DNA of 13,670 bases from an uncultured archaeon (GTDB taxonomy: Archaea; Asgardarchaeota; Lokiarchaeia; Sigyniarchaeales; SOKP01), in contig CAZGJX010000104.1 in the NCBI GenBank assembly GCA_964525635.1, positions 1 through 13,670 on the forward strand. Direction: 5' to 3'. Within the stretch, counting starts at the first letter, position 1. Each line of letters begins with the position of its first letter. The translations under genes were made by a program, and so were the position numbers. The notes beneath the pieces were generated by a model that saw only the letters and a program-made list of their open reading frames with translations, was not told where the DNA came from and made no database searches. This document shows, piece after piece, positions 83 through 8,196 of this stretch.

Positions 83-2668
83 ATGGATAATTTTAATCAA
101 ATAAAAGAATTAAATCCTAATGGGACTCATAAACCTTTAGGAGAAGCTTTAAAAGAGGTTATTCAAGGAGGATTGTTTGCTTTTTGCGGAGCAGGAATAT
201 CGATTCCTCCTCCGAGTTGTGCACCTTCATGATGGACCTTAACAGAAGAAATATTAACATCATTCTTTGGACACTTACCTGATGATTGGGGCATTCCTGA
301 TGATTTCAAAGTAAAAGCATCTAATAGACAACCAGAAGAGGTATTTGAGAATTTTTCAAGTATATTAGAATCGAGATTTTTTAGCGTTTTTGAAGCTCTC
401 AATGTAGCAAATCCAAATAATATTCATCTAATATTGGCGAAATTAGCAAAAGCAAATATATTGAAGGGTTGTATAACTACAAATTTTGATATATATTTAG
501 AACAGGCACTGCGTAAAGAAGGTGTCGATTATGAATTACTTGTTGAGAACTCCGAATTTGATGAATATTTAAAGAATAATATAGATAATGGTGAATTACA
601 GCATAACAAATTTATTTTATGTAAGATTCACGGCACAACTGATAGACCAAGTACGATTGTGGCTGTTGCTTCAGCATATAAAATGTCAAAAGGATTTTCT
701 GAACCTAAAGCAAGGTTATTTACAAAATTATTATCCAAATATCCTTGTTTATACATGGGTTACTCTGGATGGGATTATAATCATATCAATTATCAACGAT
801 TTTGGGAAAATGCAGGACTAATAGTAAAGAAAATTCTTTGGAATAGACAACCAAATGAAAAAGATGGTCCAGATTACAACTCAATTTTTAAAACTTGTCG
901 TGATAGATTTGAATTTTGTGAAGGAGAACTTCCAGATGCATTAATTGATTTTATAGAAAATAATCTTATAGCAAAGGTTAATCTAGAAGGATTAAATAAA
1001 GAATTTCTAAATGTTGATGAGGTTTTTAATAAAGCGAAACAAGAACGAATTGAATTTCTTAATAATTGGATATCTGATCTTCCAGATTCTCATAAAATTG
1101 GTTTAGTTATGGCAGAAAGTTCTCAATTTAGTGAAAGATTTCAAGATTTTATGAAAGCTACAAAAGAAATAACATCAAATACAGAAGGTGTCTCATTTGA
1201 TTTTGCAAAAGAAATGCAGGAACTTGACCTAAAATTTAGTAGACAGGAAATAACTATGCAAGAATATCAACAAAAAATCTATGAAATTCAATTAAGGACT
1301 TCAATGAACTCCATTAAAAAAGATTATCATCCTTATATAATGAAAGCTATTAATGAAAATAGATATCCTGGAGTTACTGATAATACAATGTATATAAGTC
1401 AATTTCTAACTTATATTACTCAATTTAGTAAATGGTTTGATATAAATGAAACAATGGATCTTGCTGCTGAGTATCAAAAGAAAATAATGGACCTCTCAAT
1501 GAAAGGTAATCCGGAATCTAAAACAGAGTTGGAGATATGGAGTCGTATTGTAGCTCTTCATCGACCTGAGGAGAACTTATGGAAACCTGCATTAGAAGAA
1601 ATGAGAATTTCTGAAGAATTATTTCTAAAAGGAGAAATTGGTGAAGATAAATTTAAAGAAGATATAGGAAATATTCAGATGGACTGGTTAAATAAACAAA
1701 TGGGAAGAGATGTAGATGTTGATGTTTTACTGGATAAACAAATTGATATAACAGCTAAAATCGGAAATAAAGATCTTTTTGAAGATCAATGTGAAGCTCT
1801 CAGTTTAACAACAATGATTATGGCAGGATCTTTATTTAGTAATATACCAAACACTGACGAATATCAAGAACTAATGAAGATTCTTTCACGTGAAGAACAA
1901 CGTGAAGATAAGAAAAAGTCTTTAATTGAAAAGGTTTTTGCTAATTTTTTTAACAGATTTCAATTAATAATTCAGAAAGCGGAAGAATTCGGAGGAATTA
2001 CTAAGAATTTAATTAATATTGCAATTTTATCTGCTATAGTGAATAAATTCCAATATTCTGGCACCAATAAACAGAATCTAGAATATAGAAACAAATGGGA
2101 TAATGGTGAATATCCTGGATATACATGTGAGAAGGATATATATAAATACATTATTGAGTGGGTTAATACATGGAAGGATAAAGCATTAGATGAATTACCA
2201 AGTAGATTTATTCAAAAATTATGTGGTAATTTAGTTATGCTTGCAAGTATGGGTAAAGACTTTGATTTATGTAAACAATCAACAGAAATTAGTTTGAAAG
2301 TAAGTGAAGGAAAGATAACTGAAGCAACACCACAAGGTATACCAAGTACATTAGCAGCTTTTTATGAAGAACAAAATAATTTAGATGAAGCTCTAAAATA
2401 TTATAATATGAGTTTAGATGCTATAAAGCTAATCACCGCTCCTATTTGGGCAGATACAATCGTTTACAGAACCTCTTTAATACAATCAAAACTTGGGAAT
2501 AAACAAAAAACTTTAGAGATTCTTGGAAGATATCATCCAGACTTCTATGGTAATCAAAGTATAATTTCTATGCCAGCAAGAAGAATAGCTAAGAATTTCG
2601 CTAAGCAATTAGCCAATGAATTAGGATATTCAAGTGCAAAACAAGCAATTGATAATATCGTAAAATAA
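83..2668 (+). CDS. SIR2-like domain (SIR2_2-type) protein with helical middle and C-terminal TPR-like region; 861 codons, interrupted by one in-frame TGA at 230-232 (recoded or recently pseudogenised)
   Basis: Manual translation from ATG 83, in the same frame as ORF 434..2668, gives MDNFNQ...LFAFCGAGISIPPPSCAPS*WTLTEEIL...NPNNIHLILAKL. The sirtuin GAGIS motif (188-202) lies upstream of the TGA. TTNFD (476-490), KIHG (623-634) and YMGYSGWD follow it. TPR-like helices (STLAAFYEEQNNLDEALKYYNMSL) occur at ~2340-2530. Ends in TAA. Confidence 0.85.
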
Positions 2669-2684
2669 AATCATAAAAATAGAA

Positions 2685-2699
2685 TTTTCTTTTTTTTTT
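2685..2699 (+). terminator. Putative archaeal oligo-T terminator of the SIR2 gene
   Basis: TTTTCTTTTTTTTTT run ~16 nt after the stop codon, between convergent genes. Confidence 0.4.
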
Positions 2700-5448: not shown

Positions 5449-5655
5449 GGATTTTTTTAAATTCCATATATTATACCACGGAGCCTTAAATATATATTAT
5501 CCAAGTTATTGCTTTTTGAAATAAAGTTACAAAAAAAATTTTTTTTTACTTATTATTTCAATTTTGTACCAGATCTATTTATAAAAAAAATTATCCATTA
5601 TTAACTAAAAATATGATAAATAAATATTTAATATATTGAATATGTGAATATAAAA

Positions 5656-8196
5656 ATGAAGAAATCCAAACTAATAATAATTTTATTCTGCGTATTAAGT
5701 TTATCCCCATTCAGTTTAAATACTTTTAAAAAACAAGGTAATATATTAAATGAATTTAACCAAGACCAAGATTTATCTGATTTAAAAGTATCTCAACTAT
5801 TAATAGGGCTTAAAGAGCTAGCTGAAACATATAATCTCAAGATAGGTAATGGATGGGGGCATTAGGAAACATGGGACTGGAAGGGATTATCAACACTTTA
5901 TCATGATTATAATACTTTCTGTATTCAGGGGGAATCTTGTTGGGATTATATTCATCCTGAACCTGACCGTTACCAATTTAAAGCTTGTGATAGTCTAATA
6001 TCTATGGCTGAAGCTCAAAATATGACAATATCTTGGCGAGGGGATCTATTACATTGTTTTCTCACAGCAGATTGGTTAACAACGGATACAGATCCGGGAA
6101 ATTGGGATCCTAATGATTTGGTATCTAATTTTAATCGCTCAGAACTTTTAGCAATTTTAGAAGATCATATAGAGACAGTTATTGGGCGGTATAAGGGGCG
6201 ATTAGACTATATCACTGTTGCAAATGAAATAAATCTTTGGGGAGAGGCTAGTTCTTTTTGGTACAGCACAATCGGGCCAGAATATGTTGCTTATGCTTTC
6301 AATAAAACCAATGAGGTGGATCCTGATGCTAAATTATGCATAAATGAAGTATTTTTTTATTATGATGAGGTTAAATTAGATGAATTTTGTAATTATGTCG
6401 AAAATTTATTGAATCAGAGTATTCCAGTTCATGCAATTGGACTTGAAGTGTATGGTTGGGGAAATGATGAATGGGGATTAGATTGGAATTTATTCGAACA
6501 ATATCTCCAACGGATATTTGATCTTGGATTAGAAGTTCATTTCTCAGAAATTGCTGATCCTATTGCTAATGAAGATGGTTTAGGACTAGATCCTGAGAGA
6601 TTGCAACTCCAAGCTGAATTTTATCAAAGACTCATAGATATAGCAATAAGAGAAGAGAATATAACTGTATTTTCTACTGGTCTTACAGATAAATATTCTC
6701 CTTGGTGGCATCCATACCCCTCCGGGATAGCTCCTCATATCTTTGATGGAAATTTTGAACCAAAACCAGCATATTACGCGCTACAACATAGATTTCAGGG
6801 AAATACTAGCCTATACATACATAATTTTTCAGATCCTACGGTTAATCCTGATTCTACTCCGGCTCCTTGGCCTACTTTTGGAATGGAAAATCAAATAAAG
6901 GAATATTATGAGGTACTCACAGCAAACTTTAATAACTCTAACTCATGGCAATTGACAGATGGTAGTTCCATATACAGAGAATTAAATTCAGGAGACCAAT
7001 TTGTGGTCAATATCACTTCTATTCCAGTTTTTGAATCGGATTTTAATCCTTTTCTTAATAGCTTTGAAATCTGGATTTCAGGTGACGGCTTTTATGGGAG
7101 TTATAGGGGGGATTATAATTATTTCTGGGCCTTTCCAGAATTTACTCCAGATGTAGTACCTATTTACTTTGAGGAAATTATTACTGAAGATACTGTCTTT
7201 GATGGATATCTTAATTATTTTTATGGTAATTCGGAAATTATTCAAGGAGTACCAATTCCAGGACCATTTTGGATTCGTGATATTTGTCCTGAGGGTGCGC
7301 GATGGTCGTGGGATGATGTCGCAGTAATGTACCAAGGTCATGGCTTTTATATGTTTAACGATACTGAGATAGTGATTATTAATAATGAAACAACCTTCGG
7401 TTATTCAGCAAGCAATGAGAATTATACTAGGCAGGAAGAATGGAATAAATCCACAGGACTTTTAGCCTATTATCATTATAATGGTACAGTATCTTCTAAT
7501 ATAACCTTAGATTTTGAAATTATCTTAACGAATTATTCAAATCCCATTGGTATTCCAACTTGGAATCAAAATCCTACAAATCAGTTTCATGAATATGGAA
7601 CTATTTTTAATTATGTTATCAGTGCTTCAGATTATTCTGGAATTGATCATTATTGGATAAATGACACAGTGAATTTTGGTATCAACGGAAATGGTCTAAT
7701 AAGTTCTAACTATATTCTTCCAATAGGGGAATATTGGATTGAAGTCCGTGCTTATGATCCATATGATAAAAATTGTACAGCAACGATTCAGATCACTGTT
7801 GATGATACAAGAGGTCCAACCTGGGATGAAGTATCTTCAAATCAGATAATATTCTATAAACAAGACTTTTATTATGATGTGGATGCTTCTGATCCTTCTG
7901 GAATTGATCATTATGAGATAAATGATACGGTGAATTTTGCTATTGATGCGAATGGTGTCATAATCAATACATATTCTCTTCCTATTGGCGATTATTGGAT
8001 AGAAATCCGAGCTTACGATCCCTATGAGAATTATTGTTATGAAATAATTAAAATCACAGTTAAAAAACCATCACCAACAACTCCCGGGATTTATGGATAT
8101 GAAATTGGTATTTTCATAGTCTTATTTGGATTTTCTATTATCAGTATTCTCTCTTATATTAATAAAAAAGAGAATATTAACATAAAAAGTATTTAA
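5656..8196 (+). CDS. Secreted, C-terminally anchored GH10-like glycoside hydrolase (signal peptide + GH10 barrel + unknown domain + 2 Ig/cadherin-like repeats + Loki-CTERM-like anchor); 846 codons, interrupted by one in-frame TAG at 5863-5865
   Basis: ORFs 5644..5865 and 6004..8196 share a frame and are separated only by the TAG. The gap translates as GLKELAETYNLKIGNGWGH*ETWDWKG...YNTFCIQGESCWDYIHPEPDRYQFKACDSLISMAEAQNM, matching the GH10 N-terminus (KW..I.P..G.Y.F...D). Signal peptide MKKSKLIIILFCVLSLSP. Acid/base motif VANE (Glu 6226-6228), nucleophile motif HFSE (Glu 6547-6549), and FDGNFEPKPAYYAL. Alternative start GTG 5644. Confidence 0.85.
7555..8061 (+). repeat. Two tandem intragenic 87-aa (261-bp period) Ig/cadherin-like repeats
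   Basis: Unit 1 at 7555-7815, unit 2 at 7816-8061. Shared PTW...ASD.SGIDHY.INDTVNF.I..NG.I.....LPIG.YWIE.RAYDPY..N/Y C...I.ITV; similarity is also visible at DNA level (tctggaattgatcatta). Confidence 0.9.
8089..8196 (+). other. Loki-CTERM-like C-terminal sorting/anchor signal
   Basis: Pro/Thr linker (PSPTTPG), then IYGY (variant of IPGY), a hydrophobic helix (IGIFIVLFGFSIISILSYI) and a basic tail (NKK). Confidence 0.65.

Follow-up and report, generated by a model that had tools for sequence, protein, structure and literature searches.

Stop codons that fall inside otherwise intact genes are known from several systems. They occur as nonsense lesions in the young pseudogenes of prokaryotes (Kuo and Ochman, 2010; PMC2916853). 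They are also recoded, and among Asgard archaea the insertion of selenocysteine (Sec) has been placed in all classes and that of pyrrolysine (Pyl) in Sifarchaeia only (Sun et al., 2021; PMC9723677). In filamentous fungi, premature stops are restored by adenosine-to-inosine (A-to-I) mRNA editing (PMC10776026), the adaptiveness of which is debated (PMC13431901; PMC13684035). The theme of the present report is a pair of in-frame stops in an uncultured archaeon of the Asgard class Lokiarchaeia, located on a 13,670-bp stretch of DNA, hereafter the window, which is the entire contig C104 (CAZGJX010000104.1) and carries nine genes. Two of these, a SIR2-like gene and a gene for a GH10-family surface glycosidase, are each broken by one stop. 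The host genome (G000) comprises 4.45 Mb in 245 contigs with 26.8% GC, at an estimated completeness of 100% and contamination of 3%. As we argue below, both stops are very probably recent, ordinary G-to-A nonsense mutations, the two genes young pseudogenes, and no dedicated mechanism links them.

A preliminary description of the window, made from its letters alone, had pointed to both genes as intact-looking but for a stop one step from a Trp codon. It had proposed a system of recoding or restoration, with three options: (a) editing or suppression to Trp at both stops, (b) separate insertion of Sec and Pyl, and (c) G-to-A nonsense mutation, DNA damage or consensus error, the last of which it regarded as the simplest. 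The features concerned are as follows.

83 to 2668, forward strand: SIR2-like gene (Pfam SIR2_2) of 861 codons, from ATG at 83 to TAA at 2666-2668, broken by one TGA.
230 to 232, forward strand: the in-frame TGA, codon 50, in place of the leading Trp of the invariant PSWW motif and directly past the GAGIS glycine loop.
434 to 2668, forward strand: longest open reading frame (ORF) restarting past the TGA, with a TTG start and 744 aa, whose product would lack the GAGIS loop.
5656 to 8196, forward strand: gene for the GH10-family surface glycosidase (Pfam Glyco_hydro_10) of 846 codons, from ATG at 5656 to TAA at 8194-8196, broken by one TAG.
5863 to 5865, forward strand: the in-frame TAG at codon 70, where an aromatic residue is usual, within the first GH10 strand region.
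6004 to 8196, forward strand: ORF restarting past the TAG, with an ATG start and 730 aa, without the signal peptide or the beginning of the barrel; it is annotated as the gene in public assemblies.

The lesion is clearest in the SIR2-like gene, whose product bears weak similarity to SIR2-type defence candidates. The gene shows neither a frameshift nor a second stop, and homology runs through the TGA. A search of 40 related genomes with the gene read through yielded ten homologs for alignment. The TGA column is Trp in all ten, including three orthologs from the same genus (70-73% protein identity), and at the level of DNA the motif reads TGG-TGG in every one of the ten, as against TGA-TGG in the host genome. 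Conservation of the stops in related genomes, which had been put forward as a mark of recoding, was therefore not found for this TGA, which is TGG in each of the congeners G001, G002 and G003. The same-genus orthologs are intact in two of these three genomes, and the host genome itself has intact paralogs on C47 and C4. The third ortholog (L006, on G001:C137) carries a TAA of its own at codon 467, where the intact G003 ortholog, 95.5% identical to it, has Lys. This stop is independent of the TGA, and the SIR2-like family has evidently been lost repeatedly by ordinary nonsense mutation. At otherwise invariant columns the broken gene has three unique changes, the stop included, and its congeners none, a count too small to interpret. 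With protein identities of only 70-73% to the same-genus orthologs, saturation of synonymous sites is probable, and the lesion is probably too recent to leave a signal in the ratio of nonsynonymous to synonymous substitution (dN/dS).

The GH10 protein has a signal-peptide-like N-terminus, the GH10 barrel, C-terminal repeats and a hydrophobic tail, and its gene is likewise free of frameshifts and of any second stop, with homology running through the TAG. No ortholog was found among the 40 genomes searched. An intact paralog of 851 aa on C34 of the host genome has Trp at the TAG column, as do two of the nearest GH10 homologs, in G035. Across ten database homologs the column holds Trp in three, Tyr in three, Phe in three and Gln in one, and the nearest of them (44% identity) reads HWETWDP where the window reads H-stop-ETWDW. 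Trp appears likelier than Tyr as the ancestral residue, because TAG is reached from TGG by a G-to-A transition but from TAT by a T-to-G transversion, a change contrary to the genome's AT bias. The preliminary account of two genes with single stops (TGA at codon 50 of 861, TAG at codon 70 of 846), no frameshift and homology on both sides thus holds in full, while its statement that both lie one step from Trp is secure for the SIR2-like gene, with TGG in ten of ten relatives, and probable only for the GH10 gene, with its mixed Trp/Tyr/Phe column and Trp in the nearest homolog.

The explanation that we favour begins with a G-to-A change in a TGG Trp codon, which would have turned TGG into TGA in the SIR2-like gene and, most probably, into TAG in the GH10 gene. 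The stop alleles would then have become the consensus in a nearly clonal salt-marsh population of this AT-rich (27% GC) archaeon, each inactivating, or at least truncating, a single dispensable gene out of several copies in an accessory family. Loss of function of both genes is what the positions of the stops ahead of essential parts would predict, and loss of one copy would probably be tolerated because both genes have intact paralogs in the genome. We infer that both lesions are recent: an 800-codon gene offers about 140 stop-mutable site-equivalents by our own rough estimate, and since neither gene has a second stop, less than about 2% neutral divergence would have accumulated since the lesion, which fits a near-clonal population. 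Nor does the proximity of the two call for a special cause, as with at least 75 lesion loci in 4.45 Mb we estimate that a few nine-gene windows holding two lesion genes would occur by chance. Several marks of a young pseudogene are present, namely a sense codon conserved in homologs, a lesion located in genomic DNA, and, for the SIR2-like TGA, its absence from close relatives.

The number of lesion loci comes from a genome-wide census, in which the genome's own 3277 ORFs (at least 120 aa) were compared with the genome by tblastn and stops were counted in well-flanked paralog alignments, after 23 repeat-type queries had been removed. The census gave 108 in-frame stops in 75 loci. The residues aligned to them were Trp 17 times (10 TAG, 7 TGA), Tyr 14, Lys 10, Gln 9, Glu 7 and Cys 7 (all TGA), the rest falling on others. 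Single lesions account for 38 of the 75 loci (20 TAA, 11 TGA, 7 TAG), and single TAA stops break long, otherwise intact genes at C34:15787 (Gln; an alignment of 1088 columns at 78% identity), C27:10765 (Tyr), C87:14202 (Gln) and C19:43316 (Lys). About 17 junctions resembling frameshifts came to light as well. Relatives with sense codons, together with a genome in which nonsense lesions are many, TAA included, and are joined by frameshifts, are what the preliminary description had itself named as speaking against its proposal of recoding. A more advanced stage of decay is seen in a pseudogene at C146:4431-4737, on a contig with five tRNA genes, which has five in-frame stops, three at Trp, one at Gln and one at a variable column.

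The prominence of Trp among these stops does not need a Trp-specific process, because TGG has two transition paths to a stop. Under a rough AT-biased mutation model, with relative rates assumed at 4 for GC-to-AT transitions, 2 for GC-to-TA, 1 for AT-to-GC and 0.5 for others, and with the genome's own codon usage, 14.7 Trp sites are predicted among the 108, close to the 17 seen, as against 4.5 under a uniform model. Three observations nevertheless weigh against routine decay as the whole account. One is that each gene has a single lesion with some 800 codons open downstream, which fits either a very young pseudogene or a gene kept functional. Another is that stops at Trp are somewhat commoner for their target size than stops at Gln, about 2.6-fold per mutational target, with 17 in 18202 paths as against about 9 in 23381 among transition-type lesions. 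The third is a family of FG-GAP-like beta-propeller surface proteins, in which three of the five paralogs have exactly one stop each, at a different repeat Trp:

C123:5678: TAG, single stop in an FG-GAP-like paralog.
C26:5227: TGA, single stop in an FG-GAP-like paralog.
C11:44349: TGA, single stop in an FG-GAP-like paralog.

The two remaining paralogs, on C82 and C12, are intact, as is the homolog in G002; in-frame stops seen at C82 and at G002:C84 were rejected as lesions, being upstream of the start codon. Ascertainment together with target size may explain both the Trp excess and the FG-GAP-like pattern, since no columns are better conserved, and hence more readily scored, than those of Trp, and the FG-GAP-like family has a Trp in each repeat.

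Among the alternatives to young pseudogenes the one that survives best, although we consider it unlikely, is that the mutations are real but the genes remain partly functional, through leaky near-cognate readthrough or through reinitiation at the TTG at 434 and the ATG at 6004, so that the stops act as throttles. Of the three stops UGA is in general the most prone to leak, being misread as Trp, and the fully intact downstream frames are what such a throttle would leave. Yet the restart products would be without the GAGIS loop in one case and without the signal peptide and first barrel strand in the other, neither the next base (UGA-U, UAG-G) nor any RNA structure gives a readthrough signal, and intactness is to be expected of any lesion younger than the roughly 2% neutral divergence estimated above.

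A further reading would set apart the stops at Trp positions, the two of the window and those of the FG-GAP-like genes on C123, C26 and C11, as a class partly decoded as Trp and throttling accessory and surface genes. The route could be near-cognate reading of UGA and UAG by tRNA-Trp, or an RNA-level correction of unknown kind. We give this class little credence, and keep the small probability of Trp-directed readthrough or correction because of the excess of Trp over Gln and the FG-GAP-like pattern.

No more credible is option (a), by which one mechanism, A-to-I mRNA editing or a Trp-inserting suppressor, restores Trp at both stops and thereby gates both genes. Its attractions are that a single A-to-G change would turn either stop into TGG, that both fall on Trp or aromatic positions in genes otherwise intact, and that the census has a mild excess of stops at Trp positions. 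Against it stand the searches for the machinery that it would need. Fungal editing relies on deaminases of the ADAT2/ADAT3 type. Profiles for the TadA/ADAT deaminase folds (PF14437, PF00383) had no match in the host genome, though 12 of 14 control genomes matched; a search for the ADAR family (PF02137) was uninformative, as no control genome matched. As for suppressors, no tRNA with a CUA anticodon was found in the genome, the sole UCA anticodon is that of tRNA-Sec, and the three tRNA-Trp calls are all CCA. Two candidates called tRNA-Stop(tta) by aragorn in intron mode were rejected as suppressors: Rfam matches no tRNA at the site of the first, on C22, while the second, on C185, shows the anticodon loop CUUUUAA and is read by cmscan, at 54.9 bits, as a Lys(UUU) tRNA containing a 31-nt insert. 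This latter tRNA (C185:4179-4282; L036:180-283) has its insertion, of 25-31 nt, outside the canonical 37/38 intron site, and the insertion is most likely a non-canonically placed intron.

Local RNA structure that might favour restoration was equally absent. Folding of 120 nt around each stop and of the 3' regions of both genes gave z-scores of +0.2 to +1.6 and no structure, and an Rfam scan of the window returned no match at E-values up to 1. The absence of the SIR2-like TGA from three congeners counts against restoration too, as does the finding that single-lesion genes just as often have TAA at Lys, Gln, Tyr or Glu codons, beyond the repair of any such mechanism. With no TadA/ADAT-type deaminase fold, suppressor tRNA or RNA structure found behind it, the proposal of editing or suppression to Trp lacks support. 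A change of the genetic code fares no better: both codons serve as ordinary terminators, TGA ending 243 and TAG 273 of 1862 ORFs of at least 250 aa, so neither has been freed for Trp, and long ORFs contain 9101 TGG codons, as against 17 Trp-aligned stops in the census.

Another tRNA feature of the assembly stands apart from these candidates. Contig C54 (27.6 kb) carries 20 intron-less tRNA genes in two divergent arrays (19098-20390, reverse strand; 25170-26273, forward strand), which make up 20 of the genome's 33 intron-less tRNAs, many of its other tRNA genes containing introns. The arrays resemble a tRNA array of a mobile element or virus, or else a mis-binned contig.

Very improbable, in our judgement, is that the stops are artefacts, whether of sequencing or consensus building or of cytosine deamination damage in a library. 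In its favour, both changes are G-to-A and depth is modest, about 5-10x per run. The window sequence was matched in 23 salt-marsh metagenome runs, compared as Logan contigs per run, in which minority alleles are hidden and some samples possibly come from one campaign. The TGA is spanned by an X2 contig covering 123-862, and the TAG by an X2 contig covering 5498-6982 and an X3 contig covering 4614-6046, all without a difference from the window; the pieces from X4 bridge neither stop, and no run contig shows an alternative letter at either. In an independent JGI assembly, one contig has the GH10 gene split in the same way by this TAG, and it departs from the window at a single base elsewhere (7902, A>T). 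Over the whole contig the only single-base variants among runs are 2673 A>G (X2, X3) and 3149 C>A (X2), and, with 7902 added, these three are all the single-base changes observed among samples and assemblies, the population being nearly clonal across the salt-marsh samples. Because both stops recur in other samples, and the TAG in the independent assembly as well, consensus error and library damage are very unlikely. Within option (c) of the preliminary description it is thus the G-to-A nonsense mutation that stands, and DNA damage and consensus error that fall away.

The genome does possess means of decoding some UGA codons as Sec. A genuine tRNA-Sec (59.9 bits, above the Rfam gathering score) lies at C50:9907-9999, with SepSecS (485.6 bits) adjoining it at C50:10185-11486, and TGA is aligned to Cys at seven census sites. 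These include C109 (8158, 9732), C87 (9595, 11164) and C14:39970, and are probable selenoprotein genes. A UGA of this kind aligns with Cys or Sec, whereas the SIR2-like TGA falls in an invariant Trp column. In the 3' region of the SIR2-like gene (2660-2795), folding (z = 0.22 against shuffles) and Rfam gave no sign of a Sec insertion sequence (SECIS), no dedicated archaeal SECIS model having been used, and the sequence past the TGA likewise folds no better than its shuffles (z = 0.7). For Pyl, the best matches to PylS, PylB and PylD reached 35, 38.5 and 20.4 bits, far below cut-offs of 178, 348 and 150 that a Methanosarcina control passes (PylC was not searched). Option (b), with Sec at the TGA and Pyl at the TAG, is accordingly the least credible of all and close to negligible, for the tRNA-Sec with SepSecS and the TGA-Cys sites are set against a Trp column unfit for Sec, the lack of any supporting fold or Rfam match in the window, the failure of PylS, PylB and PylD to reach their cut-offs, the absence of a tRNA-Pyl, and the confinement of Pyl among Asgard archaea to Sifarchaeia (PMC9723677).

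The terminators of the nine window genes had also been cited as making readthrough cheap, and their description proved correct on recheck: the FAD-oxidoreductase gene ends in TGA with a TAA 4 codons on, the TrmB gene in TAG with a TAA 4 codons on, and the thioredoxin gene in TAG with a TAA 14 codons on, whereas TAA itself terminates the six others. The accompanying remark that such backups are expected by chance is borne out genome-wide, where a TAA follows within 4 codons after 21% of TAG, 26% of TGA and 22% of TAA terminators.

What is at stake in the choice among these readings is easily stated. If true, Trp-restoring editing or suppression in an Asgard-type archaeon would represent a novel form of recoding, and one in the nearest lineage to eukaryotes. 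Young pseudogenes, the reading that we prefer, carry a more practical message: single in-frame stops are common in this AT-rich genome (some 75 loci or more) and follow the mutation spectrum, and they are best annotated as pseudogenes and not as recoding candidates. The census then serves as a baseline from which true recoding stands out, for example at the TGA-Cys selenoprotein sites.

Set beside the known systems, the two genes differ most from those restored by editing in fungi (PMC10776026), to which they are alike only in codon arithmetic, that is, in being otherwise intact with a stop one A-to-G step from Trp; here no TadA/ADAT fold was detected and the SIR2-like stop is not conserved in congeners. 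With Sec and Pyl recoding in Asgard archaea they have in common a host genome that decodes some UGA as Sec, as its tRNA-Sec, SepSecS and TGA-Cys columns indicate, but the stops themselves sit in Trp or aromatic columns, and no SECIS-like fold, tRNA-Pyl or Pyl genes (PylS, PylB, PylD) were found. The closest likeness is to the young pseudogenes of prokaryotes (Kuo and Ochman, 2010; PMC2916853), which resemble the present pair in the single nonsense lesion of an otherwise intact accessory gene with a sense codon in relatives, and also in the variety of lesions across the genome and the presence of intact paralogs. There is no essential difference between the two, the occurrence of two such genes within 6 kb being the only notable point, and the phenomenon is most likely of an already known kind, routine gene decay.

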